Assembly (NCBI GenBank): GCA_035629175.1
Contig: DASPIL010000040.1
Location: 40,255 to 104,254, forward strand
Length of the DNA stretch: 64,000 nucleotides
Reading direction: 5' to 3'
Source: Verrucomicrobiia bacterium
Lineage (GTDB): Bacteria > Verrucomicrobiota > Verrucomicrobiia > Limisphaerales > DASXHY01
Shown here: piece after piece, positions 10,475-55,692 of the stretch
Position numbering within the stretch: position 1 is the stretch's first letter
Layout: each line of letters opens with the position of its first letter
Made by a program: the position numbers and the translations under genes
The notes under the pieces: generated by a model
What the model was told of the DNA's origin: nothing
The model's database searches: none
What the model saw: only the letters and a program-made list of their open reading frames with translations

Positions 10475-10523
10475 CAGCCGCCGCTTTCTCTGAAATGACT
10501 GGGCCGTCCAACCCAGGACGCCT

Positions 10524-38148: not shown

Positions 38149-41100
38149 TCAGGGCAGTTCGATCAGGAAGAACCGGCGTGGCATCTGAGGCGAGAGCGAA
38201 TTCGTAAACGAGAAGGTGCCGTTCGCCGAGAACGTGTTGGTTGCCATTCTGATCCAGTCCGCGCGCGGGGTTGCCAGGTTTGTCGAAGCCAGCACGTGAT
38301 AGGTTCCCGACGGAACGCCATTCGATCCGTTGAACACGAGGCTGCCTCCCTGCAAAAAGGTGCCGCTGATTTGCGGCAACGCGGAAGAACCAACGGCCAG
38401 CGTGCCCGATACTGCAAGGTTTGACGTCACCCAAACCAAACCTGGGCCAGGTATCGCAGGGGTGATGCTGCTGAAGGAACCCGAGTAGCTCGCAGCATCG
38501 AACAACTTGAAGCTGCTGCCCGACGCGAGCGTTCCCGGAACAATGAGATTGAGGGTTCCTCCGTACGTAATGGTTGTATTGGAACGCAGCACGTCATTTG
38601 TTCCCGATGCTTCGTCCAAATCCATTTCAACCGCTCCCGAAAGCGTGACTGAATTGCTGATCGTCAAAGCGCCGATCCCATCCAATCCTGGTGATACCAT
38701 GGAGCCTGCGTTCGCAACCACATGTCCATTGAGCACGCCGTTCCCGCGGAGAACCTGGCCGTTGGCGACCGTGAAGGTGGAATCCACACGCCCCGTCAAC
38801 GTCAATGTGGCCCCGGCCGCAAGCGTTACGACCGGACTGGTGGTCAGGGCGGCAGTCCCATTCAATCGCAGGGCGCCGCTGTTGACGCGGGTTTCACCTG
38901 TGAAAGTGTTTTCGCCGAACAGGATCATGGGTGAGTTGCCAGCCTTCGTGATGCCGCCGTCACCTGTGATGTTTCCCGAAACCGCAAGGGCAGTTCCACC
39001 GACATTGAAGAGCGCTGTTCCGTGAACTTCCACGGGTCCGTCGAGGGTAGTGTTGGCGCCCGTGCCATTATTAACCGTGTTGTTGATGCCATTGCCGTTC
39101 AGCACGAATTGCTTGTTCCAGACGACAGCGCCATTTGCGAAAGCCAGAGTCGCTCCGTCCATAACAGTCAACGTCTTGGACGAATCTCCCATCGTCGAGG
39201 TCAGGCCGGAAAACTCGAGCGTTCCCTGGAGGACCTCGATATCGCCGAGAGCTGGATCAATCGCGGTTTGGGCGAGGTTGATCTGGCTTGCGCCCGTCTT
39301 CGTGAGCTTGTAAGGGTTTCCCGCCGTACTGAGCGCCGCAGCGCCGCCGCCGTTGTTGATGGCCCAAAGGCCGCTGCCGCCAAACACGGTGTCACCCGCC
39401 AGAATGACCTGCCGCACCGCCTGCGCCTGGGCCGTGCTGTTATTGACCAGCGCGCCCTGGCCATCCGCTCCCGCGCCGGAAACGGTGATCACTTCACCAC
39501 CCAGATTGCGGCCGTTCAAATCGAGAGTGGCTCCATCATGGACCGTTGTTCCTCCAGCTGCGGTTCCAAGCGCGGTGTCGGTTTCGGTGCGCAACACGCC
39601 GCCTTCAATCTCAACAAGTCCCGTGAAATTATTCGCTCCGCCGAGCGACAGCGTGCTGGTGTTCTGTTTGAAAATGGCTGTCGCGCCGCTGATTCTTCCG
39701 GGCCCGCCGATCGTGAAGAAGTTCGCTGCCGAATCATTGGTGATCGCTACCGGTGCAACGCTGAGTCCTTCGGCGATGCTGATCACGGTGTTCACGCCTG
39801 GCGTATCGTCGAAGAGCACCGCGTCGCCCGCAAAGAATGCCGATGCCTGGTTGTTGCCCAGGTTCAACCAGTTAGCCGTGAGCACATCCCACGTGCCGCC
39901 CGCCTGCGAGTTCCACTTCAACACCGTTCCACCATCGCCGGTCACATTCAGGTACACCGATCCGGGATTGGAGTAATCCAGCGCAACGGGGATGTGCGTT
40001 CCCGTGACCACTGGATTAAACGAGCCGGAACGCGTCCCTGTGTAGGTGAACAGCAGGTAACTGGCACCATTGGCGGGCGCGCCATTGAAGTTGACACGAA
40101 TAACGTTGTTGTTGGCAGTGAGGTTGCCGACGACGTCCACGGAGTCGTTAGCCGCAGGGTCAGAGGGATTCGAGGCACTCAGGTCAAAGGTCGCGGTTGC
40201 GCCACTTTGAAGAACCAGGCCGCCATGGGCCTTGAACGATCCTCGAGCGTTGGCGTTTCCAGGAGCAAGTTCACCCGCAACCGTGGTCAATCCGTTTACA
40301 ACGCCGCTGCCGGAAAGAACCGTTCCCGTTGCAGCTGTCACGGACCCGCCACCAGCGGTGGATTGGTCGAGTTGCAGCGTCCCCCCATTCACAACTGTCG
40401 CGCCGCTGTAATCGTTTGCCCCCGAAAGCACGAGCGTGCCGCTGCCATTCTTCGTCAATGTCCCTGTCCCTGTAATGGCACTGCTCAAGGCGAGGTTTCC
40501 ACTGCGGTTGATAATCAGGGAAGAATTGTTCGTTATGCTCAGGGCACTGAGACCGCCATCGACGTCGCCGAGGCCGAGCTGCAACGTGCCGGCAAGAATC
40601 GAAACGACACCGAAATGATCAACGCCCTGGTTCGCGAGCACAAGAGTGCCGGAACCGCGCTTCATCAACGATCCGGCGGCTGCAATATTACCGGGCCCTG
40701 TGAAGGTATAAGTCGTCGAGATATTGCTGACATTGATGCTGCCCGGCGAGAGCGCTTCGGCCAGCACGACATCGGGCTGCAGCCCCAAGTCATTAAACGT
40801 GACAGCCGCTCCCGCGAAGAACGCAGACGCGCTGCCCTGATACAGCCAGTTCGGAGTTGCGGAATCCCATGTTGCATCGGCCGCACCCGTCCACCGCATG
40901 GAGAGGTCCACGACCGGACCAGAGTTCAACTGCAGCGTGACGAGACCGTTGCCAGCGTCCAGCAGTACCCCGCTGTAAGCCGGACTCGCGGCGGGAAGTG
41001 TGCCGAGAACAAAATTGCCACTGACGCCGGATTGATAGGCGATGAGCGTAAACGTGGCGGGATAAGAAGCAATCGGGGGCACGGCGAGAACATTGATCAC

Positions 41101-42495
41101 ATTCTGGCTGCCGCCCGCATTGAAGTTCTGAACTGCGACGGCGGCGCCCCCATTCGAGGCAGGAAGTTCAAGCGTCGCATCGCTCACGCTCATTGTGCGG
41201 ATCGGCGTCGTGAGCGAGCCCGCCGTGTTCGAAACAACCAGTGTGCCGCCGGGGTTCACGTTGATGACACTGTTGCCCCCGCCAGCCACAATCGCATTCG
41301 CCGCCGCCACGCCGCCATTGATGTTCAGGGTCCCGTTGACAGCACCGGTGCCGCCATTGGTACGCGCGAGCCGAAGCGTGTTGTTGACGACGAGCCGTGC
41401 GGCTTGGGGAAAAACGAAATTGTTGTCGACATTCACGACAGCCGTCACCCCTCCATTGGCGCCTGTTGCAATTCCAAAACCGATCTCCATCGTGTTTGCG
41501 TCGACAATGCCGGCGCCGAAAGTGAGCGTTCCAGAACAGGTTCCTGACGACGGCCCGGGGTTGCCGATGGCGATGTTGATCAGATCCGCAGCAATATCGA
41601 TCGTGCCTGCGGAAAAATCAGCGATGCACACGGTATTGTTGCCGCTGTTCGCGGCCCCGTTGTAGCCGAAATCGATGATACTGGAACGGCTCTCACCATC
41701 GGCGTTTCGAATTTTCAGCGAAGGTGCGGTGAAGGCGGCGTTAAAGTTCAGATTTGCATTTCCCTTCTGCCCGCCAAGGCGCATGACGTCGCCATTCAGG
41801 ATCGTCTCCTGGCCAAACGTCAGAACTGATGCCGTGCCGCCGTTCGCGTTGGAGCCTGAGTCCTGCACCATGACCTGAGGCGATCCGCCGGAAAGCGTGA
41901 TGTGATTCGTGCGGGCGAGGATCAGAGTACCGGTCGGGCGATTCACCGCAGCTCCTGCCGTCGCCTGGCCAACCAGGAGCCGGCCGATCGCAGCGTTGAA
42001 GTTGTCCAGGTTCGACAAATCCAGCGTTGCCCGATGCGCGCCAGCCGTGGAGTGACCCTGCCGGACCACGAGGTCGCCGCTGCCGGACAGCGACAAAGTT
42101 CCAGTGCCTTCAATCGTAACGGGTGTCAGCGTTCCAGAGGTGATAGCCGCACTGGTGCTTCCGACATACAACACATCTCCTGCGTTGCCGCGGTTGACAG
42201 AGAGAATTTCGCCTGCGTCGATCGTCGTGGTGTGAGTTTCCTGATTGTCCTGTCCGTAGAGCAGCGAGTTAACCGTCCGTGCTGTGTCAACGACGTTGGG
42301 TGTTCCTGTTCCTATGTTCATCAATCGAACGTCGTCCGGCGGTTCAGGTGCGAGCAGAGTATCCCAATTCGCGTTGGCGGACCAGTTGCCGCCAGCGGCG
42401 TTCCATGTTGTGGTGGCCGCATTAAGCGGAGGAATGGCCAACCACACGACAAGCAGGGCTGCAATAATTCGGAAGGACAGTTGGGAATGTTTCAT
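38149..42495 (-). CDS. Large secreted beta-helical protein with autotransporter-associated (PATR) repeats and no beta-barrel
   Basis: Signal peptide; repeats such as LTKNGSGTLVLSGANDYSGATVVNGGTL; W..W...NW / V.F.D modules; C-terminus Y.V..STNL..W...RRFF. Confidence 0.85.
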   Translation of the reverse strand: MKHSQLSFRIIAALLVVWLAIPPLNAATTTWNAAGGNWSANANWDTLLAPEPPDDVRLMNIGTGTPNVVDTARTVNSLLYGQDNQETHTTTIDAGEILSVNRGNAGDVLYVGSTSAAITSGTLTPVTIEGTGTLSLSGSGDLVVRQGHSTAGAHRATLDLSNLDNFNAAIGRLLVGQATAGAAVNRPTGTLILARTNHITLSGGSPQVMVQDSGSNANGGTASVLTFGQETILNGDVMRLGGQKGNANLNFNAAFTAPSLKIRNADGESRSSIIDFGYNGAANSGNNTVCIADFSAGTIDIAADLINIAIGNPGPSSGTCSGTLTFGAGIVDANTMEIGFGIATGANGGVTAVVNVDNNFVFPQAARLVVNNTLRLARTNGGTGAVNGTLNINGGVAAANAIVAGGGNSVINVNPGGTLVVSNTAGSLTTPIRTMSVSDATLELPASNGGAAVAVQNFNAGGSQNVINVLAVPPIASYPATFTLIAYQSGVSGNFVLGTLPAASPAYSGVLLDAGNGLVTLQLNSGPVVDLSMRWTGAADATWDSATPNWLYQGSASAFFAGAAVTFNDLGLQPDVVLAEALSPGSINVSNISTTYTFTGPGNIAAAGSLMKRGSGTLVLANQGVDHFGVVSILAGTLQLGLGDVDGGLSALSITNNSSLIINRSGNLALSSAITGTGTLTKNGSGTLVLSGANDYSGATVVNGGTLQLDQSTAGGGSVTAATGTVLSGSGVVNGLTTVAGELAPGNANARGSFKAHGGLVLQSGATATFDLSASNPSDPAANDSVDVVGNLTANNNVIRVNFNGAPANGASYLLFTYTGTRSGSFNPVVTGTHIPVALDYSNPGSVYLNVTGDGGTVLKWNSQAGGTWDVLTANWLNLGNNQASAFFAGDAVLFDDTPGVNTVISIAEGLSVAPVAITNDSAANFFTIGGPGRISGATAIFKQNTSTLSLGGANNFTGLVEIEGGVLRTETDTALGTAAGGTTVHDGATLDLNGRNLGGEVITVSGAGADGQGALVNNSTAQAQAVRQVILAGDTVFGGSGLWAINNGGGAAALSTAGNPYKLTKTGASQINLAQTAIDPALGDIEVLQGTLEFSGLTSTMGDSSKTLTVMDGATLAFANGAVVWNKQFVLNGNGINNTVNNGTGANTTLDGPVEVHGTALFNVGGTALAVSGNITGDGGITKAGNSPMILFGENTFTGETRVNSGALRLNGTAALTTSPVVTLAAGATLTLTGRVDSTFTVANGQVLRGNGVLNGHVVANAGSMVSPGLDGIGALTISNSVTLSGAVEMDLDEASGTNDVLRSNTTITYGGTLNLIVPGTLASGSSFKLFDAASYSGSFSSITPAIPGPGLVWVTSNLAVSGTLAVGSSALPQISGTFLQGGSLVFNGSNGVPSGTYHVLASTNLATPRADWIRMATNTFSANGTFSFTNSLSPQMPRRFFLIELP

Positions 42496-42556
42496 ATGTT
42501 GTTCAACCGGGCTGTTGAAGGAGTGTCGCAAGTCTAGTAAAGCTGATTGGCCGACT

Positions 42557-42576
42557 CATCCCTCTTTCGAGGGGTG
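42557..42576 (-). promoter_or_regulatory. Regulon motif copy A (serves the PATR gene)
   Basis: CATCCCTCTTTCGAGGGGTG; TAGACT 20 nt downstream on the minus strand. Confidence 0.7.
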
Positions 42577-42585
42577 CGTTGCGAG

Positions 42586-42605
42586 CATCCCCCATAGGAG
42601 GGATG
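42586..42605 (+). promoter_or_regulatory. Regulon motif copy B (serves the beta-helix enzyme gene)
   Basis: CATCCCCCATAGGAGGGATG; TTTCAT 20 nt downstream. Confidence 0.7.
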
Positions 42606-42634
42606 CCTGTCGAAGCGGGAAGTGATTTCATGTC

Positions 42635-45541
42635 GTGATGCAGAATGAATCCCAGCAACAGCAACGTCCCGACCATCCCAGTCCGATGAGACGAAGCCGC
42701 CAGCTTGCCTGCCGATTCATTTTCATCTTCTGCCTTCTAGTCCACGCGAGCTCAAGCCATGCGTGGCGCAGTGTGTTGTATCCGGCGGATTGGAGCGCTC
42801 CAGATAATGTCCTGCGCTTCGAGACCAACAAGATGATCCAGGATTTCTCCTATGCCGGATTTCGAGCGGGAACTGAACCGTTGCCGGAAATTGGCGGGCC
42901 GATTTTTGACGTCACGGCCGCGCCGTTTCTGGCGGATAAGACCGGAAAAACGAATGTCACCGCCGCGATCCAAACAGCCATTGATGCGGCACAGGCATCC
43001 GGCGGGGGAGTTGTGTGGCTTCCGGCTGGTGTGTATGCAGTCAGCCCGCAGGGCCCGAACACTTACGCGCTGCGCATCAACTCATCCAACATCGTTCTCC
43101 GAGGCGCCGGCACGACGGAAACATTTGTTCTCAACACCGCCACGAACATGCGGGGAAAAAGCATCCTGCTGATCAACGGCCCCTCGGGCGCCGGATTCTA
43201 TGCGACAGGAAATCCGCCCGTGCCCCTCTCACGCGATCTCCTCGGCCCAACCACGATGATTCCAATGGCCAGCACGGCGGGATTCGCGGCAGGACAATGG
43301 ATCACCTTGCGCGCGGATGCGACGGACGATTGGGTGACGGAACACAGTGAAACATCCTGGCTTGGCTATGCGAATAGCCTGCGCGGGATCGCTTACTTTC
43401 GACAGATCATCGCAGTGGACCACAAGAATTCCACACTGACGCTGAACGTGCCGACTCGTTACTATCTGAAGACCCGCGACAACGCGAGAGTGACGCGCCT
43501 TAATTCGGGTCCGATCACAGGGACCGGCCTGGAGAACTTCTCCATCGGTAATGTTCAGCATGCGGGCATCGGGTGGAACGAAAGTGATTACACAATTCCC
43601 GGGACTGCGGGGCACGACGTTCACGACTCGTTTGCGATTCGTTTGGTGCGCGCGCGGGATTCGTGGATTCGAAATGTCTCAACATTCCAGCCCCCCGGCA
43701 ACACAGCCACATGCCACCTGCTTAGCAATGGGATCCTCATCAACGATTGCACACAGGTTACGCTCACGAACTGTCATTTGCAGCGATCGCAATACGGCGG
43801 AGGCGGCGGAAACGGCTACATGTTCCGACTCAGCAATTCGAGCGAGATTCTGCTCCAGGATTGTCGCGCCACGTTCACACGGCACGGATTTGTCCTGTCG
43901 CAAATGGCTGCAACTGGAAACGTATTCAACCGATGCATCGACAAGGATACCGGGCATCAGACCGGCCTCACAGGGTCACAGGCCACGTCGGGCCGCAACA
44001 GCGATCACCACATGCATTTCAGTCATGCCAACCTGATCGATGCCTGCACAGGTGATTCGAGCGTCTGGGAGGCGCGCTATCGCCCCTACGGCAGCGCTCC
44101 ACTGCATAATCTCACGGCAGCACACAGCGTGTTCTGGAACACACGCGGCATCGGAAGTGGCGCAGCCCACGTCGTGCAGTCGGAACAGAGCCGTTACGGC
44201 TATGTGATTGGCACCCAAGGCTCACGCACCGGGGTCTCGCTCGGCACGTTCGGCGGCAGCAAATGTTTTCCAGTGGATCACGTGGAAGGCGCTGGAACAG
44301 GCGAAACTCTCGAGCCTTATTCCTTATATCAGGATCAGGTCGCCCGCCGATTGACCGGGCCCCGCGCGTCCCTTGGCGAACCGCGAATCCTCGGCTTTCC
44401 AACCAACAGCCTGATTCTGCCGCTAACGGTTTCGATGGGGGGAACCAACGTGAACGCTGCGGATTTGGATGTCCATTGGCGTGTGGTGGCCGCGGACGGA
44501 ACTGTTTTATTCTCGAATGTGAATTCCCCCGCGCCGCAAGTTACGTTTTCCGCCCGAGGAACGAATGATCTCGAGGCCACTGTAAGCGCAAACGGATTCA
44601 GCAGTTCCGCGCGAATCCGTGTGATCCTGCTTCCGGCCGAAACCGAACGGTCGGCGTCGTATTCTCCGGAAGCCGACGCTTACGTGCGCGACGGCGCCTT
44701 TGCCGATGACAACTTCGGCTCAGAACCAACACTCCACCTCAAACAGCATTCCACACCGGGATTCAACCGGTGCAGCTTCCTGAACTTTCGAATTCCGCGT
44801 ACGGAATATGACCGCGCTGTCCTGGAACTCGCGGCGCGGACAGCGCCGCCAACTGAAGGACTCAGACTTGCGCTGCATTCAGTGACCAATACATGGCTGG
44901 AGGATTCAATCACGTGGAACAACCAGCCTGTCATAGGCGATGTCCTCGCTGATTGGGCAGCTGCCGAGAACAGCCTGGAACGGATCGATGTGTCGGCATC
45001 TGCGCAGCCTGATCCCGAGGGCTTCCTGGCATTTCGCTTCGGACTTCTGATTTCCTCCGCGCCATCCGACACGGTTTATTCCTTTGCGTCAAGAGAGTCG
45101 GCTGACCTCCCAGGTCCCCGGCTCGAATTGATTTGGACCAATGCGGCATTCTCCTATCTCGATTGGACGAACCACCTGGAAGGCGCAGGCACTCCAGCAG
45201 AGAATCCCGATGCAGATGCGTGGACGAACGCGGCTGAGTATCTGTTTGGCCTCAATCCATTTGTACCTGATCCGCCTTCTGTTTTGGGCCTGGAGGCTAC
45301 AGCGATGGGTCTCGTATTAACGTATCCACAACGGAGGCGCTGGCCGCCCGGGAGCTTTTACGTGATCGAAACAGCTTCCTCACTGCACGCTCCATGGTTG
45401 CCGGCCGAAGGTGTGCAATTCAACCTTCTCGAAGCTCTCGACGATACCGTCCGAGTTGCCGCGATCATACCTCGCGCGGACGAATCGCAGCGTTTCTATC
45501 GCTTCAGCGTAATTCTTCGATTCAACAACAACCAGCTGTGA
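42635..45541 (+). CDS. Secreted beta-helix glycan-active enzyme (pectate-lyase-3-like) with DNRLRE/CBM96-like module; start may be 42638 or 42686
   Basis: DFSYAG, AIQTAIDAA..GGGVVWLPAGVY; ADAYVRDG..NFG..ITWNNQP..ASRE; EYLFGLNP...RFYR tail. Confidence 0.75.
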   Translation: MMQNESQQQQRPDHPSPMRRSRQLACRFIFIFCLLVHASSSHAWRSVLYPADWSAPDNVLRFETNKMIQDFSYAGFRAGTEPLPEIGGPIFDVTAAPFLADKTGKTNVTAAIQTAIDAAQASGGGVVWLPAGVYAVSPQGPNTYALRINSSNIVLRGAGTTETFVLNTATNMRGKSILLINGPSGAGFYATGNPPVPLSRDLLGPTTMIPMASTAGFAAGQWITLRADATDDWVTEHSETSWLGYANSLRGIAYFRQIIAVDHKNSTLTLNVPTRYYLKTRDNARVTRLNSGPITGTGLENFSIGNVQHAGIGWNESDYTIPGTAGHDVHDSFAIRLVRARDSWIRNVSTFQPPGNTATCHLLSNGILINDCTQVTLTNCHLQRSQYGGGGGNGYMFRLSNSSEILLQDCRATFTRHGFVLSQMAATGNVFNRCIDKDTGHQTGLTGSQATSGRNSDHHMHFSHANLIDACTGDSSVWEARYRPYGSAPLHNLTAAHSVFWNTRGIGSGAAHVVQSEQSRYGYVIGTQGSRTGVSLGTFGGSKCFPVDHVEGAGTGETLEPYSLYQDQVARRLTGPRASLGEPRILGFPTNSLILPLTVSMGGTNVNAADLDVHWRVVAADGTVLFSNVNSPAPQVTFSARGTNDLEATVSANGFSSSARIRVILLPAETERSASYSPEADAYVRDGAFADDNFGSEPTLHLKQHSTPGFNRCSFLNFRIPRTEYDRAVLELAARTAPPTEGLRLALHSVTNTWLEDSITWNNQPVIGDVLADWAAAENSLERIDVSASAQPDPEGFLAFRFGLLISSAPSDTVYSFASRESADLPGPRLELIWTNAAFSYLDWTNHLEGAGTPAENPDADAWTNAAEYLFGLNPFVPDPPSVLGLEATAMGLVLTYPQRRRWPPGSFYVIETASSLHAPWLPAEGVQFNLLEALDDTVRVAAIIPRADESQRFYRFSVILRFNNNQL

Positions 45542-45571
45542 ACTCGATCGCTTCGACTGATCGTTGTTAGC

Positions 45572-45591
45572 TCTCCCCCGAAAGAGGGATG
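45572..45591 (+). promoter_or_regulatory. Regulon motif copy C (serves the prepilin-kinase-regulator unit)
   Basis: TCTCCCCCGAAAGAGGGATG; TAAGGT (with TGn) 19 nt downstream. Confidence 0.7.
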
Positions 45592-45631
45592 CCGCCGTTT
45601 CGGCGTTTGCTAAGGTCGTGACATCACTCTT

Positions 45632-46438
45632 ATGAGAATCGCGACCCCGCCGATTATCGTCATCCGATCCAAGTTCCGACACGCCTTGTGGCGGGCGTTC
45701 ACCCTGATTGAACTCCTCGTCGTGATTGCAATCATCGCAATCCTCGCGGCAATGCTGTTGCCGGCGCTGGCGACAGCCAAGGAAAAGGCGAAGCGCACCA
45801 ACTGCATCAGCAACCTGAAGCAGATCGGGCTGGGAATTCAGATGTACGCTGACGAGCATCGCAACCAATTGCCGCGAAGGTTATCCAGCGATCCGGGAAC
45901 AGGTTCAGCTGTGTGGGACCTCACGCATAACATGGCCGATCAGTTGGCGGCTTCCGGGGCGCAGCGGAAAATTGTTTATTGTCCCGGCGGCTTCACGACG
46001 GTTCGCGATGCGGACTTCTGGTGGAACTATTCCAACGGTTCCCGCGTGACGAGTTACCAATGGCTGATCAGCCGCGACGGAACGCAAACTTATGGGACGT
46101 CGTTTGGCCCTCCCCCGTCGAATCCAGCGCTTGGCGCGCGCAAGGGGTTCCTGACGCGGCTTGGAAACGTCTACACCAATTTCTATACGGTTGCCGAAAC
46201 CGAATTGGTGACGGATGTCGTCGTATCGGAAGGCGCGGGCACGCGAAAGGACAAGTTCGTGAGCGTCTTGACAGTCAATCCCACGGAACTGCCACGCGGC
46301 TACAACAGCAGCCACATGGCTGGACGAATGCCCGCGGGAGGCAACATCCTGTTCATGGACCAACACGTCGAATGGCGGCAATTCCGCGACATGAATTCCT
46401 GGTGCCGGTGGACCCAGAACCGGTGGAGTTGGTTCTGA
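45632..46438 (+). CDS. Prepilin-type N-terminal cleavage/methylation protein with H-X9-DG-type C-terminal motif (DUF1559-like)
   Basis: [36 protein letters not shown]...[11 protein letters not shown]. Confidence 0.92.
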
Positions 46439-46496
46439 ATGCGGCTTTGAAGCTTGGCAAGAGCGGTTTGTTGCAACACTGTGACCTCCTCAGTCC

Positions 46497-48749
46497 ATGA
46501 TCCCAGGTGCAACAACTTCCGCGCGAACGAAGCAGCCCCTTTTCCGTTCCGTCATTTCTGTACTCGCGCTCGCCTGGTTTTTCCTCGCCTCTTCATCCAC
46601 AGCCCCTGCCGAAACCCTCACCAACGCCGCCCAGGTTCTGTCGCTCGACGCTGCCGCGGCGGCGCAGAAAATTCCAGTTCGGATCACGGGAGTCGTAACC
46701 GCCGCGGAGCCAACCTGGAATGGCAAATTCTTCGTGCAGGATGAAACCAGCGGCGTGTTTGTCGGCAATCGCATCGTTCCCGCGCCGCAGCCGGGTGACG
46801 TGGTGGAAGTCACCGGCGTGACCCATCCTGGCTCCTATGCGCCCATTGTAACGAGCCCGAAATGGAAGCCTCGCGGCAATGCGCCGCTGCCTGAGGCCCG
46901 CCGCGTTCCCATCGAACGCGTCATGGCTGGCGCTGAAGATGGTCAGCGCGTTGAAATCGAGGGGATCGTCCGATCTGTCATTCCTGGAAAAACCCACCTC
47001 GATGTTTATCTGGCGTCTGGGGGCTACCGTTTGCATGTCTATCCCAAGGCGTCGGCAGCACTCAATTCACAGCCCTTGATTGGCGCGAGAGTCCGGGTGC
47101 GCGGAACCGCCGCAGCCTCTTTCAATGCAACCCTGCGCCACATGCTTTCGGTCGTGCTCTTTATTCCGCAGGAGTCCGATTTCATCGTGGAGGAAGTCGA
47201 AGCTGTTGACCCGTTCGACGAAGATATCCTCCCGCTGAAGAGCGTCGCTCAGTATCGCCGAAACGTTGCTCCCGGCCAAAGGATGCACGTGAAGGGGGTC
47301 GTCACCTTCCAGCGGCCGGGCGAGGATCTCTTCATTGAGGATGGCACCGCGGGATTGCACGTCCGCAGCCGCCAACCGCAGAATTTTGAAATCGGGGATG
47401 TGGTTGAAATCGCGGGCTTCGCCGATTTTGATCACTTCCTGCCTGTCCTGGAGGATGCGGTTTTCCGGCTGACCGGCGATCCGCATGCGCCCGCCGAGCC
47501 GAAGTCGGTGACAATGGCGGAGATCCAGGCCGGCCTGCATCATGCCGATCTCATTCGGCTGACGGCAAAACTGCTGGATCGGAGCACACGCCATGGCAGG
47601 CCGCGCGGAAATGGACGGCATTGGTCGCGCACCGTCCTCATGCTGCAGCACGAGGATCAGGTGTTCACAGCCGAAGCGGAATCGCCAGACAGCGAAAATC
47701 CCCTGATGGGAATTCCACTGGGAAGCGCCGTCGAGGTCACGGGGATTTGCTTCACGGAAAATGGGGAAGACAAGAAGCTGCAATCGCTGCAACTGTTGCT
47801 TCCCAGTCCCGAGAGCTTCCGGATTGTTGAGAAGCCGAACTGGTTGACGCCTCAGCGAATGCTGATTGGGGTGAGTCTGCTCCTCGTTGTCTTGATCGGA
47901 GCCGTCGGATGGTCATTGATGGTATCGAAGCGCAACGCCGTGCTGAGGCAATTGGTTCGCGACAGGGAGTCGGCGCAGGACGCACTCCAGCAGGCTCACG
48001 ACCTGTTGGAGGAGCGCGTAAAGGAACGCACCGCCCAATTGAAGTTCCAGATCACCGCGCGCAAGGAATCCGAACTGCAATATAAAGCCGTGCTGTCGGA
48101 GCGCACGCGGCTCGCGCAGGAATTGCATGACACCTTGGAACAATCCCTGACCGGAATCGCCCTGCAGCTCGATACCACAGCCAAATTGTTTGAACAAAAA
48201 CCGCAGGTGGCAAACCGCCACCTCGAGCTCGCGAGGGATCTCCTCTCCCAAAGCCAGGTGGACATCCGCCGTTCAGTCTGGGATCTGAGATCGCGTGCGC
48301 TGGAAGAATTTGATCTTTCCGGCGCGCTGATTACGAGCGCGCGGCAATTGACTGATGGAACATCGATCCATTTTGAAGTGTGCGCCAAGGGACGCGTTCG
48401 GCCGCTCCCGGAAACGATCGAGGACAACCTGCTTCGAATTGCTCAGGAAGCCATGACCAACATCATCAAGCACGCCCAGGCGTCCAACGCCGAGATCGAA
48501 CTCGATTACGGTCCGCGCACCGTGGGAATGCGGATTCGCGATAACGGGCGCGGTTTCCTGCAAGAAGAATGCGCGGGGCCGGCTGAAGGACATTTTGGAC
48601 TTCTCGGCATTCGCGAACGCGTGAAGCGGCTCGGAGGGGAATTGAACATCGAAAGCGCACCCGGCGCTGGCACGCTGCTGTCCGTCCAAGTTGCCGTCAG
48701 CCCCGATGTGACAGTGGAGGACGCTCTCATCGCCCCGCTCGCCTCATGA
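46497..48749 (+). CDS. Sensor histidine kinase (HisKA_3) with tandem OB-fold-like periplasmic repeats
   Basis: Repeated V.GVVT...F.QD...G..V...GDVVE..G units; TM helix; ERTRLAQELHDTLEQ, EAMTNIIKHA, DNGRGF. Confidence 0.92.
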   Translation: MIPGATTSARTKQPLFRSVISVLALAWFFLASSSTAPAETLTNAAQVLSLDAAAAAQKIPVRITGVVTAAEPTWNGKFFVQDETSGVFVGNRIVPAPQPGDVVEVTGVTHPGSYAPIVTSPKWKPRGNAPLPEARRVPIERVMAGAEDGQRVEIEGIVRSVIPGKTHLDVYLASGGYRLHVYPKASAALNSQPLIGARVRVRGTAAASFNATLRHMLSVVLFIPQESDFIVEEVEAVDPFDEDILPLKSVAQYRRNVAPGQRMHVKGVVTFQRPGEDLFIEDGTAGLHVRSRQPQNFEIGDVVEIAGFADFDHFLPVLEDAVFRLTGDPHAPAEPKSVTMAEIQAGLHHADLIRLTAKLLDRSTRHGRPRGNGRHWSRTVLMLQHEDQVFTAEAESPDSENPLMGIPLGSAVEVTGICFTENGEDKKLQSLQLLLPSPESFRIVEKPNWLTPQRMLIGVSLLLVVLIGAVGWSLMVSKRNAVLRQLVRDRESAQDALQQAHDLLEERVKERTAQLKFQITARKESELQYKAVLSERTRLAQELHDTLEQSLTGIALQLDTTAKLFEQKPQVANRHLELARDLLSQSQVDIRRSVWDLRSRALEEFDLSGALITSARQLTDGTSIHFEVCAKGRVRPLPETIEDNLLRIAQEAMTNIIKHAQASNAEIELDYGPRTVGMRIRDNGRGFLQEECAGPAEGHFGLLGIRERVKRLGGELNIESAPGAGTLLSVQVAVSPDVTVEDALIAPLAS

Positions 48750-49378
48750 ACGATAAGCCCGGAATCAAGGTGCTGGTCGCTGACGACCACTTTGTTGTTC
48801 GCATGGGGCTGATCGCTCTTGTGAATACGGAACCGGATATGCAGGTGGTGGGCGAGGCTGCCGACGGAAAGCAGGCAATCGAAATGTTCAACCGGCTGCG
48901 GCCAGATCTCGTCCTGATGGACCTGCGGATGCCCGTGAAGGACGGCATTGCAGCCACACGTGAAATCCGCGAGAAGTTTCCTGACGCGCGTGTTCTAATG
49001 CTCACCACATTTGACGGAGACACCGACATTCATCGCGCGATCGAGGCTGGTGCGCGCGGTTACGTGTTGAAGAACACAACGGGCGACAAGCTGATTCCGG
49101 CGTTGCGGGCTGTGGCATCCGGGCAGAAATGGATTCCACGCGAGATTGCCACGCGCCTGGCTTCACGGAACCTCTTCGAGGAACTTACCCCGAGGGAAGT
49201 GCAGGTCCTCCAGCAAATGGCGAAAGGCCTGGCCAACAAGGAAATCGGCGAGGTGCTGCGGATCAGCGAACATACGGTCAAAGATCACCTGAAGAATATC
49301 CTCGGAAAAATGCGCGTTGCAGATCGCACCGAAGCGGTCACGGCCGCGTTGCAACGCGGGATCATCCAGCTTGGATAA
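48746..49378 (+). CDS. NarL/LuxR family response regulator
   Basis: ADDH, MDLRMP, LTPRE, NKEIG..L.ISE.TVK.H. Confidence 0.96.
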   Translation: MNDKPGIKVLVADDHFVVRMGLIALVNTEPDMQVVGEAADGKQAIEMFNRLRPDLVLMDLRMPVKDGIAATREIREKFPDARVLMLTTFDGDTDIHRAIEAGARGYVLKNTTGDKLIPALRAVASGQKWIPREIATRLASRNLFEELTPREVQVLQQMAKGLANKEIGEVLRISEHTVKDHLKNILGKMRVADRTEAVTAALQRGIIQLG

Positions 49379-49398
49379 CGTCCCATTTCGGCGTCACT

Positions 49399-51069
49399 TC
49401 ACCGCACATCAATCCAATCGAAATCGAGCAGTCCCCGCTTCACTTCCAACTTCAGAGATTGCAAGCCACTATCAAACGGTGCCTTGCCCAGGTTGAGCTC
49501 TGTCCAATCCTTCGACTCAAATCGAAGCGGGTACGAGCGGCCATCCCGGACAAGCGTTGCTACCCCCGCTCCGAAAGGAGCGCGGGCTCGCACGATCAAG
49601 TCGAAGGTTCCTTTGTTCCGGTTGTGAATCGAATACGAAGTCCATTCCGTTTCTGACAAAGTGACGTAAACATCGGAACTCCTTTGTTCGGGTTTGGCCG
49701 CAGTGACTTTCACCGATTGATCGGGTCGATAGTGGGCAGATTTTGTCGAGCGATCGCGGACATGGTAAGACACGCCGGCGCCGCCGAATCCGAAGTTCTC
49801 AGCTTCAATTCGCGCGGGGGTCTGGCGCAGGATGGAGTTCACCACGCCCGGAAAGAAATCACAGTTTTCAATTCGCAGGTTCAAGATCAGTTCGTCCAGT
49901 GCCGCTTGGGCAACTTCACGGGAAGGACGTTTCCCGCCCTGAGAATATGCGACAAGCTCCGACCAATGCTGCGGCCGGCGAATCGAGAACGGCGCATTGG
50001 CTGAATCCACTTTTTTCCACGGCCAGAACGACCAGCCAATGTTGTTGGCTTCAAAATACGCCGTGGTCGCCCAATAAATCCCGCCATCGCGTTCGCCCGT
50101 TTCCCCCACCCAGACGGGCGCGTTCAGACGTTCGCGATGTCGCACATACCGATCAATGTTCTTCACAACCGCGGGCGTGTCCCAACAGTAATAATGACAT
50201 TGATACACGAGGTTATCATCGAAGGGCTTCGTGAAGATCGACCAGTCATTGGCCCAATCAACGCCTTCGAGAATGATCATGTGCCGCGAATCAACCTCGC
50301 GAATGGCGCGCGTGATCCGCTGATACAACGGCTCGACCAGGTGTTTGTATTTGGCAGCCGCGCCCGTGCGTTCGGGTAAGGGTTCGTTCAGCAGGTCATA
50401 ACCGGCGACAGCAGGTTCATTTTTGTATCGGTTCGCAATGGAAACCCACAGATCCACCAGGCGATCCTGATAGTGAGTATCCATGAACAGCCTCGGCTGA
50501 TCATCCAGGCTGTCGTCGATATTCTGTCCCGTCTGGCCACCCGGGGCACCATGCATGTCGATGATCACATACAATTGGTGTTTCCGGCACCATGCAACCA
50601 AGTCGTCGAGCAATCGATAACCCTCTTCCACGCGAACTGGCGGGCCGGTTTCAGTGAGGAACAATCGGGCATTCAAGGCGGGCCGGACGGAATTAAATCC
50701 GAGATCGGCAATTCGTCGGATGTCGGCTTCCGTGATGTAGTTGCGGCGAAAAGCCTCCCAGAAATGCTGGGACGGCTCGTCGCCGATCATGTCAGCAACC
50801 ATTTTCTCGATGCGTCGCGGCCGATCGCCGTCCCTGCCAAATTTCCACATATATCCTTCAGGCAGCATCCAGTTCCCGAGACCCACGCCCCGAAGCAGAA
50901 TCGTCTCGCCCCGTTCGTTGATGATGTCGTGCCCGTGCGTCCGCAGAAATGTGAGTTGCGCCGCAATTCCGTCCCCCAGGGACGCCTGAATCAGCAGCAC
51001 GACCGCTAAAAAGAGCGGAGCACTTGTGGACGGCAGTTTATGGCGCCGAAAGGAAATTATAAGTTTCAC
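49399..51069 (-). CDS. GH5 family glycoside hydrolase with C-terminal CBM6/35-like module; start uncertain (GTG 51069 preferred)
   Basis: GLGNWMLPEGYM, GFNSVR, DMHGAPGGQ, YDLLNEP, WVGETG, WSFWPWKK; IEAENF. Confidence 0.88.
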   Translation of the reverse strand: MKLIISFRRHKLPSTSAPLFLAVVLLIQASLGDGIAAQLTFLRTHGHDIINERGETILLRGVGLGNWMLPEGYMWKFGRDGDRPRRIEKMVADMIGDEPSQHFWEAFRRNYITEADIRRIADLGFNSVRPALNARLFLTETGPPVRVEEGYRLLDDLVAWCRKHQLYVIIDMHGAPGGQTGQNIDDSLDDQPRLFMDTHYQDRLVDLWVSIANRYKNEPAVAGYDLLNEPLPERTGAAAKYKHLVEPLYQRITRAIREVDSRHMIILEGVDWANDWSIFTKPFDDNLVYQCHYYCWDTPAVVKNIDRYVRHRERLNAPVWVGETGERDGGIYWATTAYFEANNIGWSFWPWKKVDSANAPFSIRRPQHWSELVAYSQGGKRPSREVAQAALDELILNLRIENCDFFPGVVNSILRQTPARIEAENFGFGGAGVSYHVRDRSTKSAHYRPDQSVKVTAAKPEQRSSDVYVTLSETEWTSYSIHNRNKGTFDLIVRARAPFGAGVATLVRDGRSYPLRFESKDWTELNLGKAPFDSGLQSLKLEVKRGLLDFDWIDVR

Positions 51070-51101
51070 TAGGAAAGCATGCGCCCGCGCCAAAGGTTCT
51101 G

Positions 51102-51121
51102 CATCCCTCGTTCGAGGGGAT
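51102..51121 (-). promoter_or_regulatory. Regulon motif copy D (serves the GH5 gene)
   Basis: CATCCCTCGTTCGAGGGGAT, 17/20 identical to copy A; CATGCT 20 nt downstream on the minus strand. Confidence 0.7.
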
Positions 51122-51125
51122 CTTT

Positions 51126-51812
51126 TCACGTTGCCCCATCGGCTTCGATCCATCGGACTGCGTAACGGACGAGGTCGGTCGCAGTCTTCAACTGCAGCTT
51201 CTCCTTGATATTGGCGCGGTGCACTTCAACGGTCTTCACACTGAGATGCAAGTGATCTGCAATTTCGCGCGTTCCTTTTCCTTCGCCAATCATCTGGAAC
51301 ACTTCAAACTCGCGATCAGAAAGCCGCCCCACCCCCGAACCGCCGCCTCCATCCCGACGCCCGGAAAAGATCTCGAGGATTTTTGCCGACATCTTTTCGC
51401 TGACGTAAATCTTGCCCTCCAGCACCTGACGGATGGCTTCCATGAGTTTTTTCCCCCCTTCCTGCTTCATCACGTAGCCCCGTCCGCCGGCACGAAGGAC
51501 GCGCTCCGCATAAAGGGCTTCATCATGCATGGACACCACCAGGATCAGGATCGCAGGATGCATCGCGCGAAGGTCCTTGATGAGCTCGAGCCCGTTTTTG
51601 TCGGGAAGAGAAATGTCGGCAATGAGCAGATCGGGGGTCTGCATTCCCACCTGGCTAAGCGCCTGGGCCGCGTTGTCAGCCTCGGCGGCCACAATGAGGT
51701 CGGGTTCGTTATTGATCAACTGCGCGAGCCCCTGGCGCATCATGGGATGATCATCCACGATGACGATTCGCTTCCTAACCTTTTGCGTTTTCCTGGGAGC
51801 CACTCTGCTCAT
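51126..51812 (-). CDS. NarL/LuxR family response regulator
   Basis: VDDHP, DISLP, SMHDE, LSDREFEV, SVKTVEVHR. Confidence 0.95.
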   Translation of the reverse strand: MSRVAPRKTQKVRKRIVIVDDHPMMRQGLAQLINNEPDLIVAAEADNAAQALSQVGMQTPDLLIADISLPDKNGLELIKDLRAMHPAILILVVSMHDEALYAERVLRAGGRGYVMKQEGGKKLMEAIRQVLEGKIYVSEKMSAKILEIFSGRRDGGGGSGVGRLSDREFEVFQMIGEGKGTREIADHLHLSVKTVEVHRANIKEKLQLKTATDLVRYAVRWIEADGAT

Positions 51813-53223
51813 GTTGCGTTGAGGCGCTGGCGAGAGCAATCGTGCATGTCACGCGCACTCCGCCCTCGGATCTGTTTTCCACGGTCAAATTCCCACCAAT
51901 CATAGAGGCCCGGGACTGCATGATGCGAAGACCCATGCCGTTTCCCGCGGGCGCCGCTGGCAACCCGCGTCCATTATCGGTGACCATCATCAAAAGTTTT
52001 CCGGGATGCGACTCCAGCAGGATGCACAAACGCGACGCCTTCCCGTGCCGAATCGCGTTCGATACGGCCTCCTGCGCGATGCGGAAAATGTGCGTAGCCA
52101 TCGCGTGGTCATTAACAAGAACAGGAACGCCGCACTCGAAACGGCATTCCACCCCAAAAATCTTTTCAGTGTTCGACGCCAGTTCCTGCAGGCCGGACAT
52201 CAGGCCTTCCGACTCAAGCACGATCGGCGACAATCCTCTCGCCATAAGCCGCGCATGACTGATGGCGTCCCGCACGTAGCCCGCGATTTCGCCCAATCGG
52301 GTGGCGATGCTTTTTGACCTGGCAGCGGCTTTCTGTTCCAGCACCTCGCACATCAACTCGACTCCTGCAAGCTGCTGGCACAAGCCATCATGGAGATCCT
52401 GCCCGATGCGCCGCTGCACACGGTCATTGATCTCCAGGATTTCCTTTTCGAGGCGTTTGCGTTCTGTGATGTCACGAAGGATGACAAGCCAGTGCGTGAT
52501 CCGGCCCGATCGATCTCTGACAGGACTGATGCGCCGCTCAACCCAGCGCTCGCCTTGAGCACTGTCGTATGCCGAGATTTCCTCATCGAAACTGCGGTCG
52601 GGGGGGATCCCATGGATCAGGCGCTGGTGAACTGCGCTTAATCCTTTCAAACGGTTGAGCGGGCGTCCGACCACCTCGTCCGGGCTGTAGCCGGTCAATT
52701 TGGCGAAGGCGGGGTTGACGAACAGCACCTGCAGGTCTGGAAGTTCGGCGCTGGCGATGAGGACGGCGCTGAACCCTTGAATGACTACGCTTTGAACGAG
52801 GTTCACCCGTTCCTCGGCCGCTGCAAGCCGCCGTTCGGTCTCGAGTTGCTCGACCACATTCCCCACGACCTCGGGAACAAAATCGAGGAACCGGACATCC
52901 TTCACGAGGTAGTCTCGCGCGCCCCGTTTCATCATTTCCACCGCCACGCGCTCATCCCCCTGCCCCGTGATGATGACAAACGGCAAGGAACGCTCCAGGG
53001 TTTCGAGGCGTTGGATCAATTCCTTGCCCTCCATGTCCTGAAGCTTGAGGTCGAGCACGAGCAGATCCGCCCGCTGGCTGGACAGCCAGGCCAGAGCCTC
53101 TTCGCCCGAGGCAGCGGTGGCGGTCTGAAATCCTCCGCGCTCCAGCGCTTTTTGGATCAGGCGCAACAGACCCCGATCATCATCCACGATGAGAATCAAA
53201 TGCTGGCGCGTCGCGTCTTGCAT
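51775..53223 (-). CDS. Hybrid REC-PAS-HisKA_3 histidine kinase
   Basis: ILIVDDD...DLKL...DYLVK; VNPAF PAS; RIGQDLHDGLCQ, EAVSNAIRH, DNGRG. Confidence 0.92.
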   Translation of the reverse strand: MQDATRQHLILIVDDDRGLLRLIQKALERGGFQTATAASGEEALAWLSSQRADLLVLDLKLQDMEGKELIQRLETLERSLPFVIITGQGDERVAVEMMKRGARDYLVKDVRFLDFVPEVVGNVVEQLETERRLAAAEERVNLVQSVVIQGFSAVLIASAELPDLQVLFVNPAFAKLTGYSPDEVVGRPLNRLKGLSAVHQRLIHGIPPDRSFDEEISAYDSAQGERWVERRISPVRDRSGRITHWLVILRDITERKRLEKEILEINDRVQRRIGQDLHDGLCQQLAGVELMCEVLEQKAAARSKSIATRLGEIAGYVRDAISHARLMARGLSPIVLESEGLMSGLQELASNTEKIFGVECRFECGVPVLVNDHAMATHIFRIAQEAVSNAIRHGKASRLCILLESHPGKLLMMVTDNGRGLPAAPAGNGMGLRIMQSRASMIGGNLTVENRSEGGVRVTCTIALASASTQHEQSGSQENAKG

Positions 53224-53236
53224 AACCGGTAAACGG

Positions 53237-53689
53237 TTATTTGCCGCTGCCCACTTCCGGCACCTGCACGAGCGAGATGTAAAGACCAAGACTTTTGATC
53301 GCCTCGGCAAATTTGTCGTAGTCCACGGGTTTGACGATATAGCTGCTGCAGCCGATGTCATGGCAGCGTTCCACCTCCCGCGGGTCGTCCGTGGTGGTCA
53401 GCATGATAACCGGAATGCGGCGCAATTCCGGATCGCCTTTAACCTGGCGCAGCACCTCAACGCCATCCACCTGAGGCATGCGAATATCGAGGAGAATCAA
53501 GTACGGCGCCTCGGGAAGGCGGTGGGGGCCAGCGCCGCGGTGAAAAAGAAAATCGAGCAATGCCTGGCCGTTGTCGAACCGTTGAAAACTGTTGTGCAAT
53601 CCTGCCCGGGCCAGGTTTTTTTCAATCAATCGGGCGTGGCCCGCGTCATCCTCAGCAATCAAGATCATCATTTCCCGAGCAAGCGTCAT
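53237..53689 (-). CDS. Single-domain response regulator (Rcp1-like)
   Basis: IAEDD, LLDIRMP, IPVIMLTT, YIVKPV. Confidence 0.93.
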   Translation of the reverse strand: MTLAREMMILIAEDDAGHARLIEKNLARAGLHNSFQRFDNGQALLDFLFHRGAGPHRLPEAPYLILLDIRMPQVDGVEVLRQVKGDPELRRIPVIMLTTTDDPREVERCHDIGCSSYIVKPVDYDKFAEAIKSLGLYISLVQVPEVGSGK

Positions 53690-53705
53690 AGGTGGATGGC
53701 TCTCG

Positions 53706-55367: not shown

Positions 55368-55396
55368 ATGGGCGTGGTGACGATAAGCATCCAGTG

Positions 55397-55436
55397 GAAA
55401 AAAGAAAGAGCCACGAACGCTTCCGCTCGTGGCTTT
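55397..55436 (-). terminator. Intrinsic terminator after the 62-aa ORF
   Basis: AGCCACGA/TCGTGGCT stem followed by CTTTCTTTTTT on the minus strand. Confidence 0.7.
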
Positions 55437-55479
55437 AGGAGGGATGTGGGGGACGGGCGCCTTCCGCGCGCCCAAATTG

Positions 55480-55668
55480 TTATTGAAACGGCTCCTGGTA
55501 GGGTACCCGATGGACCTGTCCGCGCAGGATCTGCCCTGAAGGAAATGCGCGCCAAACATTGGTTTGATCGCGATACGCAAGGAAACGCTCGCCGCCACAC
55601 TGGACGTAAACCGGAACGGCGAGGGGCAAATTGGGGTCGGGTTTCATCTGCTTGCTGGTCTTGTTCAT
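55480..55668 (-). CDS. Small hypothetical protein (62 aa)
   Basis: Starts 24 nt after the PocR-AraC stop and ends just before a terminator; beta-like core VYVQC...FLAYRD...WR. Confidence 0.55.
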   Translation of the reverse strand: MNKTSKQMKPDPNLPLAVPVYVQCGGERFLAYRDQTNVWRAFPSGQILRGQVHRVPYQEPFQ

Positions 55669-55692
55669 AGGGATGCAACTGCCCTGCCTGAG

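Follow-up and report, generated by a model that had tools for sequence, protein, structure and literature searches.

Which protein reads a 20-bp palindrome that stands four times, each time upstream of a gene, within a few kilobases of a Verrucomicrobiia genome, and what would that reading do? The four palindromes, here called boxes A to D, lie in a window of 64,000 nucleotides (positions 40,255 to 104,254 of the forward strand of contig DASPIL010000040.1, assembly GCA_035629175.1), close to the gene of a NarL-family response regulator at 48746-49378. An earlier note on this window had assigned the boxes to that regulator as oriented activator sites. After comparing the locus with related loci (L numbers below) and genomes (G numbers, with C for contigs; G000 is the genome of the window), we regard it as highly probable that the four palindromes are binding sites of the neighboring regulator and that it would activate the four promoters beside them, a reading drawn from sequence comparison throughout. 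The elements concerned are the following, with positions counted in the window.

42557..42576, minus strand: box A, the best copy, upstream of the gene of a PATR-repeat protein (genome rank 1, score 32.7)
42586..42605, plus strand: box B, the weakest copy, with a center that is not A-rich, upstream of a beta-helix lyase-like gene (rank 4, 19.8)
45572..45591, plus strand: box C, upstream of a prepilin-like gene and the kinase-regulator pair (rank 2, 29.8)
51102..51121, minus strand: box D, upstream of a glycoside hydrolase family 5 (GH5) gene (rank 3, 25.4)
48746..49378, plus strand: NarL/FixJ-family response regulator (PF00072 and PF00196) with the recognition helix K179-D180-H181-L182-K183; the predicted box binder

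The four 20-mers, which agree letter for letter with those in the earlier note, form an imperfect 8-4-8 inverted repeat whose inner 16 bp read 7-2-7. With one mismatch allowed, the pattern CCC-N6-GAGGGATG has 7 matches in the window against 1.59 expected, a number reached in 0 of 100 shuffles, 6 of the 7 deriving from the four sites (A and B are counted on both strands). GAGGGATG by itself is common, with 105 copies in the genome (5.41 Mb in 108 contigs, 96% complete). When spacers of 0 to 8 were tested across this genome, matches with no more than one mismatch appeared at a spacer of 4 only. A genome-wide scan of the kind proposed in the earlier note, performed with a matrix trained on 39 sites that all come from other genomes, placed boxes A, C, D, and B at ranks 1 to 4, and the next score was 18.7. 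Leave-one-out matrices run over 5.4 million positions gave a similar account, with the scores of A and B reached by 2 positions, that of C by 9, and that of D by 10. Among the 37 genome matches scoring at least 9, a −10-like hexamer at 19-21 nt was present only for the four boxes and for one weak match (9.3). The matrix ranks, the local clustering, and the −10 spacing together therefore mark the motif as real and local and not as a dispersed repeat.

The individual boxes also recur ahead of related genes. Homologs of the PATR-protein gene in L058, L114, and L126 carry the box as well. Box B is nearly symmetric (19.8 versus 18.9 in the opposite orientation), and its orthologs in L032 and L058 keep its position and both of its half-sites. 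An upstream box is found for 8 of the 9 closest homologs of the box D gene in other loci (55-62% identity), the ninth being truncated by a contig end. The matrix scan found no distal regulon members in G000. Two candidates, G000:C103:16253 and C107:44693, were rejected as ends of a dispersed repeat family, and C66:570 and the remaining matches were rejected as lacking a −10. The repeat family itself is about 170-285 bp long and 68-95% alike (C103 at about 16030-16300, C107:44669-44933, and dozens more places), and two of its copies have a box-like hairpin at their end.

The position of the box relative to the promoter provides a further line of evidence. The hexamers that the earlier note had placed 20, 20, 19, and 20 nt after boxes A, B, C, and D are as it described, and they give the following predicted starts.

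42531..42536, minus strand: −10 hexamer of promoter A (TAGACT), with a predicted +1 near 42524
42623..42631, plus strand: extended −10-like element of promoter B (TG-n-TTTCAT), with a predicted +1 at 42638 and a putative function
45611..45616, plus strand: −10 hexamer of promoter C (TAAGGT), with a predicted +1 near 45623
51076..51081, minus strand: −10-like hexamer of promoter D (CATGCT), with a predicted +1 at 51069

The hexamers of B and D deviate from TAnnnT. Orthologs of promoter B have TG-n-TTTAAT and TG-n-TTCAAT at the matching offset (19-20 nt), and CAnnnT variants 20 nt from a box also precede other GH5 genes. Across 80 sites, TAnnnT starts 19-21 nt downstream of the box in 50 and on the opposite side in 9, while other 3-nt windows hold at most 4; with CAnnnT and TTnnAT also allowed, the numbers are 66 versus 15, over a background of 2-11. 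In 23 new held-out sites TAnnnT was present downstream in 19 and on the opposite side in none. For the 63 sites with a −10 on one side only, the distance is 19, 20, or 21 nt in 11, 36, and 16 cases. The earlier note's comparison with NarL-family sites near −41 of class II promoters survives as a class II-like position, with the center put at about −42.5 (−41.5 to −43.5) and so nearer to NarL at yeaR (−43.5) than to the canonical −41.5, a value of −42.5 ± 1 that is counted from the −10 (first base = −12) and not from a mapped transcription start. Box and genes point the same way in 24 of 27 tandem layouts. No sigma-70-like promoter and no consensus −35 were found at any of the four sites. One metatranscriptome run contained 0.08 of the words, and 13 of its contigs could be placed, 9 of them at 99% or above, at a depth of about 2-5.

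The assignment of the boxes to the regulator at 48746-49378, as first made in the earlier note, is supported by their co-occurrence with its orthologs and their exclusion from paralogs. A box scoring at least 16 is present in 34 of 45 loci with an orthologous regulator and in 30 of the 31 that span at least 15 kb; the 11 without are mostly short. The background of such matrix matches is about 1 per Mb (10 in 5.41 Mb, 5 of them from the home locus). The exact 18-letter pattern occurs in 8 of 41 related genomes, and all 8 are among the 9 that have the ortholog. The ninth has relaxed box copies, and none of the 32 genomes that lack the ortholog has the exact pattern, including four of the same genus (G001, G005, G007, and G010). 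Four of the 41 genomes contributed to this pattern; new to it were all distal copies and those in G002, G008, and G011. Genomes with the pattern hold 1-6 exact copies each, some distant from the regulator. In 300 other genomes of the phylum, 11 have the ortholog and 6 of these have the exact pattern within 17 kb of it, while the 289 without the ortholog yielded two genomes with one exact match each, neither with a −10. Seven ortholog loci without the exact pattern nearby all have a box, scoring 16.6-24.8. Between loci the target genes differ greatly, and the box stays with the regulator clade.

Among the titled loci whose regulators are most similar, the majority belong to Verrucomicrobiia, Limisphaerales, or Opitutaceae, and the window was assigned to Verrucomicrobiota for this reason. 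The record titles of L031, L032, L038, L039, L042, L048, L059, and L062 name Bathyarchaeota, Bifidobacterium, Proteobacteria, or Acidobacteriota; their regulators are placed within the Verrucomicrobiota clade by a tree that did not include L059, and the titles were taken as labeling errors because the genes are the same. In L059 the orthologous regulator was matched in two pieces within the helix-turn-helix (10522-10527), which suggests a frameshift, and the matrix scan of this 12.6-kb locus found no box.

If the box belongs to one regulator clade, its paralogs should be served by something else, and the comparison bears this out. In a strict pattern, the present box (box 1) occurs in 46 of 64 regulator-clade loci, in 0 of 6 sister-clade loci, and in 0 of 11 loci of other paralogs. 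The sister clade has a box of its own, T-Y-A-C-Y-C-N4-G-R-G-T-R-A, found in 5 of its 6 loci (10 copies) and in none of the 64 clade loci; 7 of these 10 copies have TAnnnT at a distance of 21-22 nt. This pattern was derived from the same sister-clade loci, and L027 serves as the one outside check; the box is absent nearby in L104 and near the sister-clade member of G000 itself. Copies are placed as follows.

Sister-clade box: L099:9584; L100:9605 and 13954; L103:10312; L105:4903; L106:4355 and 10333; L027:2152
Receiver-less LuxR genes with box 1 upstream: L080:9554; L081:1788; L083:5029; L085:8275; L088:9053; L164

The second line leads outside the phylum. Receiver-less LuxR proteins of Geobacterales and Nitrospirota share a K-D-H-L-K-N helix, and box 1 precedes their own gene, with 5 of 9 such loci scoring at least 19. 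Of 5 genomes with a receiver-less regulator, 4 hold a single copy of the pattern. In 81 Geobacterales genomes, 3 have this regulator and all 3 have the box upstream of it, compared to an exact pattern in 0 of the 78 others. In L080 and L081 a subtilase gene stands on the far side of the box. A tree of 136 helix-turn-helix domains (69 columns, by a quick method) recovered two clades, that of the regulator with 61 rows at support 96 and its sister with 9 rows at support 97, without resolving the backbone; common descent and convergence are both compatible with it for the Geobacterales and Nitrospirota regulators. The idea that D180 alone specifies the C of the half-site is not supported, as variants with G keep the box.

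Candidate boxes for other paralogs were also seen. At L097:13302 a perfect 20-bp dyad is flanked on either side by −10-like hexamers, and L109 has three look-alike dyads (14762, 14805, and 18388). A de novo scan for dyad pairs around 11 paralogous kinases of G000 recovered the home boxes and elsewhere gave one candidate pair only, on C96. Its members (G000:C96:200309 and 205529) are look-alike dyads with −10-like hexamers near another kinase-regulator pair and are possibly the box of that pair.

A palindrome bound by a dimer need not point anywhere, and yet most of these boxes do. To avoid circularity, direction was set by the −10 alone after a rescan with a symmetric matrix that ignores the center. 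The 95 rescanned sites divide into 63 with a −10 on one side, 4 with TAnnnT on both sides, in which a single box serves both directions, and 28 with neither. In the 63 one-sided sites the center is AA in 55 and TT in 5. The half nearer the promoter is the better one in 52 of 63 and the distal half in 4 of 63, and four far-half positions are invariant in 63 of 63 or nearly so. The description of the copies as oriented is therefore right as a strong tendency, and the gene-proximal GAGGGATG, which had been called invariant, holds as a rule (50 of 63 sites) and not without exception. On the top strand, A-A-A-G-A-G occupies positions −43 to −38, and the last three box bases fall where a −35 hexamer would begin at a 17-bp spacer. 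With the general coordinates of the proximal UP subsite, the A-A-A-G-A-G run fits the end of that subsite. Its sequence is 5′-AAAAAARNR-3′ (PMC4132738). For NarL at yeaR, the cryo-EM structure places the dimer at −43.5 with DNA contacts through K188, V189, and K192, and seats the RNA polymerase alpha subunit's C-terminal domain (alpha-CTD) in the minor groove between the monomers, at template A-44, T-43, and T-42 (PMC10853779). By analogy, the A-run at −43 to −41 may be a minor-groove seat for alpha-CTD between the monomers of the present regulator. The box would then be directional, with the promoter-side half and the central A-run doing extra work and the final bases standing at the start of the would-be −35 hexamer.

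The regulator and its partner have the composition expected for such a switch. The receiver domain (PF00072, 96.3 bits) has D13, D14, D59, and K109 aligned with NarL and VraR, and a GerE/LuxR helix-turn-helix (PF00196, 73.3 bits) follows at the C-terminus. In an alignment to NarL (1a04), K165, K179, H181, and K183 correspond to K174, K188, H190, and K192 and are kept, while V189 is replaced by D and R178 by E. The kinase gene overlaps the regulator start by 4 bp, and a kinase homolog is present in 39 of 45 regulator-clade loci.

46497..48749, plus strand: sensor histidine kinase (HisKA_3; PF07730 and PF02518) with a membrane segment near 453-477
46596-47852, plus strand: extracytoplasmic sensor region of the kinase, without a Pfam family, predicted as four tandem oligonucleotide/oligosaccharide-binding (OB)-like barrels; also in 11 paralogous kinases on further contigs of G000

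The model of the sensor region has four repeated beta-barrels at a predicted local distance difference test score (pLDDT) of 90.2 when built from a 68-row alignment (34.7 for the single-sequence model). All top fold matches are tandem OB-fold proteins, with TM-scores of at most 0.29 over the whole region, and a profile of the region has no sequence match in the PDB. Similar models in the Atlas belong to unnamed kinases and diguanylate cyclases of Verrucomicrobiota and Acidobacteriota. GH30, GH16, GH5, or GH3 genes are present in 37 of 49 clade loci versus 0 of 15 paralog loci, with queries that came from clade loci. For laminarin loci, a preprint gives GH3, GH5_46, GH16, and GH30 (bioRxiv 10.64898/2026.01.10.698779). 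Because the orthologous loci are rich in GH30, GH16, GH5, and GH3 genes, we propose with moderate confidence that the signal is probably a beta-glucan fragment. In the mechanism that we envisage, the predicted tandem OB-fold sensor would bind this fragment, and the kinase would phosphorylate the regulator in response to such an extracellular glycan signal. A phosphorylated dimer would sit at about −42.5 and activate four weak sigma-70-type promoters, and by analogy with NarL each monomer may read one half-site with K179, D180, and K183, which take the positions of NarL K188, V189, and K192.

A number of observations weigh against this account or against parts of it. The loci are kin and their counts are non-independent, and the matrix was built from many of the same loci; the counts therefore show linkage and do not amount to a p-value. 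The box does not point with the genes in 3 of 27 tandem layouts, 4 of 80 sites lie between genes called convergent, and the 28 of 95 boxes without TAnnnT on either side have already been mentioned. A low-depth contig from the RNA library covers 42264-42578, across the predicted start of promoter A; such contigs carry no strand, start, or level and may be DNA. In other phyla, L076, L084, L086, and L087 have the same helix without a box. In L031 and L092-L095, which have G in place of D180, the box is unchanged or slightly altered. The alpha-CTD seat has its own difficulties, since NarL R178, which contacts alpha-CTD, corresponds to E169 here (K174, although kept, is a frequent residue in this family), and 5 of 63 sites have the TT center. 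The sister-clade box lacks the oriented AA, and the seat is therefore not a rule of the family. As for the signal, no GH30 match was found in G000, and the GH16-, GH3-, GH2-, and SSF-like genes checked on other G000 contigs have no box within 4 kb, which makes the beta-glucan signal weaker here than in relatives. The lyase-like target with its CBM96 module points to uronate glycans instead.

These points must be set beside the explanations that would replace the binding of the boxes by an activating regulator. The regulator could bind the box and repress, blocking polymerase at the −35 until a signal arrives, and the final box bases do overlap the expected −35 position. However, the promoters have no consensus −35 and on their own should therefore be weak, a distance to the −10 that is constant to within 1 nt suits an activator and not a steric block, as does a one-way center, and binding in the NarL family is switched on by phosphorylation (PMC10853779), which fits induction of catabolic genes; we consider repression very unlikely. 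Only slightly more remote is the thought that another factor binds, either the LuxR-type protein encoded at 51126-51839 or an unlinked one, and that the box merely travels with glycan genes. Copy D and the end of 51126-51839 are 5 nt apart, and the genome has some 35 further NarL-like regulators. Against this, 51126-51839 has no homolog at 40% identity or above in any examined locus, the box tracks the regulator clade despite widely varying target genes, same-genus genomes in which the ortholog is missing do not have the pattern either, and in other phyla the box stands before the genes of receiver-less regulators that share the helix.

The remaining two alternatives do away with the regulator altogether. 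One sees the element as an RNA hairpin (a GNRA-capped stem, terminator, or attenuator) or a repeat of the repetitive extragenic palindrome (REP) type. The commonest form of the box can indeed fold into a GAAA-closed stem, one copy is listed as terminator-like (51104-51119, plus strand), and T-rich runs come after the copies of Geobacter and Nitrospirae. Yet only 39 of 80 sites have a GNRA loop, C-A mismatches affect pair 3:18 in 38 of 80 sites and pair 7:14 in 24 of 80 (a single case is compensated, at the latter pair), Rfam gave no match at E up to 1, and the element stands upstream of the −10 and therefore outside the predicted mRNA. The genome holds four good copies only, with a bias in orientation and spacing, so that the REP-like outcome, which the earlier note had named as fatal to its assignment, is contradicted. 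The hairpin, terminator, and REP readings were rejected for want of covariation, a fixed loop, and copies, and we assign them a very small chance of being right. Hardly credible at all is the proposal that an alternative sigma factor reads the downstream half as its −35 and that the palindrome is incidental. It would account for the much better conservation of the promoter-side half and for several deviating −10 hexamers (CAnnnT, TTnnAT), but the four nearly or fully invariant far-half positions, a −10 of TAnnnT that is typical of primary sigma, the single boxes that serve both directions, and the linkage to the regulator and not to a sigma gene all contradict it.

Taking the boxes as sites of the regulator, we can return to two further claims of the earlier note, that the regulator activates its own gene through copy C and that the mRNAs from promoters B and D may be leaderless. 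Promoter C could read through the prepilin-like gene into the kinase and regulator genes and so produce positive feedback. The gap between the prepilin-like gene and the kinase is 58 bp with no terminator-like site listed in it, and the layout recurs in L032; in L045 and L062 the box heads a same-strand run that ends in the kinase. In 21 loci the box lies directly before the kinase gene, and it points away from the kinase in all 21, with TAnnnT toward the divergent target in 14 and toward the kinase in 5. General autoregulation is not supported on this ground, and positive feedback is plausible, from gene layout, here and in a minority of relatives. Read-through from the upstream operon is another way in which target D could be transcribed.

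The leaderless claim likewise suits particular genes and not the regulon. At promoter B an ATG lies at 42638, 32 nt past the box, with 42686 as a second possible start, and both of the orthologs with a box (L032 and L058) keep an in-frame GTG at 32 nt followed by a signal-peptide-like N-terminus. At promoter D, no start downstream of the box other than the GTG at 51069 preserves the signal-like stretch in full. Among the 8 GH5 homologs with a box, 3 (L031, L032, and L034) have a GTG 32-33 nt past it and the remaining 5 have candidate starts at about 35-38 nt. The mRNAs of B and D may well be leaderless. Most box targets have leaders, and only 4 of 61 promoters, in the direction given by the matrix, have a start codon 11-13 nt from the −10; leaderless transcription as a general feature of the regulon is not supported.

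The predicted targets themselves are mostly recognizable from domain matches.

38149..42495, minus strand: target A, a 1448-aa secreted protein with autotransporter-associated beta-strand (PATR) repeats (PF12951, TIGR02601)
42638..45541, plus strand: target B, a beta-helix polysaccharide-lyase-like protein with a CBM96/DNRLRE module (PF12708, PF24517); start at 42638 or 42686
45632..46438, plus strand: target C, a prepilin-type N-methyl/DUF1559-like protein (PF07963 above cut-off, PF07596)
49399..51069, minus strand: target D, a GH5 glycoside hydrolase with a CBM6-like C-terminus (PF00150; PDB matches to GH5 glucanases and CBM6); GTG start at 51069

The GTG at 51069 gives target D a complete signal-peptide-like N-terminus. 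Beside box D lies a separate signaling cluster (51126-56745, minus strand) that encodes the LuxR-type regulator, a receiver-PAS-HisKA_3 kinase, a PAS kinase, and a PocR-AraC regulator, and that is not linked to the box in other genomes. A 1270-aa protein (1282 aa in L051) in which LamG is the sole recognized domain is a very frequent box target or neighbor (L051:3676-7524 and 13 other clade loci); the L051 protein has no sequence match in the PDB.

Verrucomicrobiota, abundant degraders of polysaccharides, have few members in culture, and a 26-bit box linked to a single regulator clade lets the whole regulon be read in any genome. The box points to unannotated co-regulated proteins, such as the LamG-containing protein and the prepilin-like genes, and its linkage names a ligand class for a sensor domain without a close solved structure. 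Its one-way center offers a natural test of whether the alpha-CTD arrangement of NarL at yeaR is used more widely. Tentatively, and as a joint claim that we think somewhat more likely to fail than to hold in all its parts, we propose that an activator dyad, a built-in alpha-CTD seat, and a −35 edge make the box a composite element in which direction is itself encoded. It would be one entry of a readable helix-to-box code shared by many Verrucomicrobiota kinases, a large family whose glycan sensor has four OB folds and which would be the phylum's counterpart of the hybrid two-component regulators of Bacteroidota, with this clade marking beta-glucan use. If such a code is real, the glycan regulons of uncultured soil Verrucomicrobiota would be readable from sequence. 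The direction-encoding center, the paralog code, and the unnamed sensor are the parts that merit experiment. Our literature search, which left subscription papers, supplements, and RegPrecise outside its scope, found no paper with the box letters or on glycan-gene regulators or such regulons in Verrucomicrobiota; a search on leaderless mRNAs and transcription starts, with subscription papers and supplements largely outside its scope, found no Verrucomicrobiota paper either.

The kind of switch is itself textbook, and the regulator and box, as read from their sequences, have the features of a NarL-family activator and its site in architecture, dyad, position, and linkage. A 20-bp inverted repeat near −42.5 that overlaps the −35 and is bound by a dimer with a LuxR-type helix-turn-helix is known from the lux box of LuxR and the tra box of TraR. 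Those proteins bind acyl-homoserine lactones, whereas the regulator here has a receiver domain and a partner kinase. The best PDB sequence matches of the regulator are VraR/LiaR, DesR, DevR (DosR), and further NarL/FixJ proteins of solved structure, with E = 4e-48 for VraR; they share its architecture but differ in the recognition-helix residues, and their regulons differ from a glycan regulon. Identity as NarL/NarP or NarX/NarQ was rejected, with all NCBIfam scores far below cut-off (161.7 versus 250 for NarL and 81.8 versus 578 for NarX). The half-site here starts T-C-C in place of the T-A-C of the NarL heptamer, and the predicted four-OB-fold sensor and glycan-gene targets also set the present system apart from NarX/NarL. 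The E. coli NarX/NarL pair at yeaR (PMC10853779) nonetheless has a HisKA_3 kinase and a REC-GerE regulator, as here, and likewise a single inverted-repeat site just upstream of the −35 (−43.5 there, about −42.5 here), with A at −43 to −41 of the top strand where alpha-CTD binds. The 7-2-7 spacing of the inner 16 bp of the present box is a further likeness. For function, the closest parallel is in Bacteroidota, where hybrid two-component systems and BguR likewise couple a membrane-spanning sensor to a local activator of a beta-glucan locus, BguR being a one-component regulator and both kinds having beta-propeller sensors (bioRxiv 10.64898/2026.01.10.698779). Compared by description and not by sequence, the system in Verrucomicrobiota would differ in keeping kinase and regulator separate and in its predicted tandem-OB sensor.

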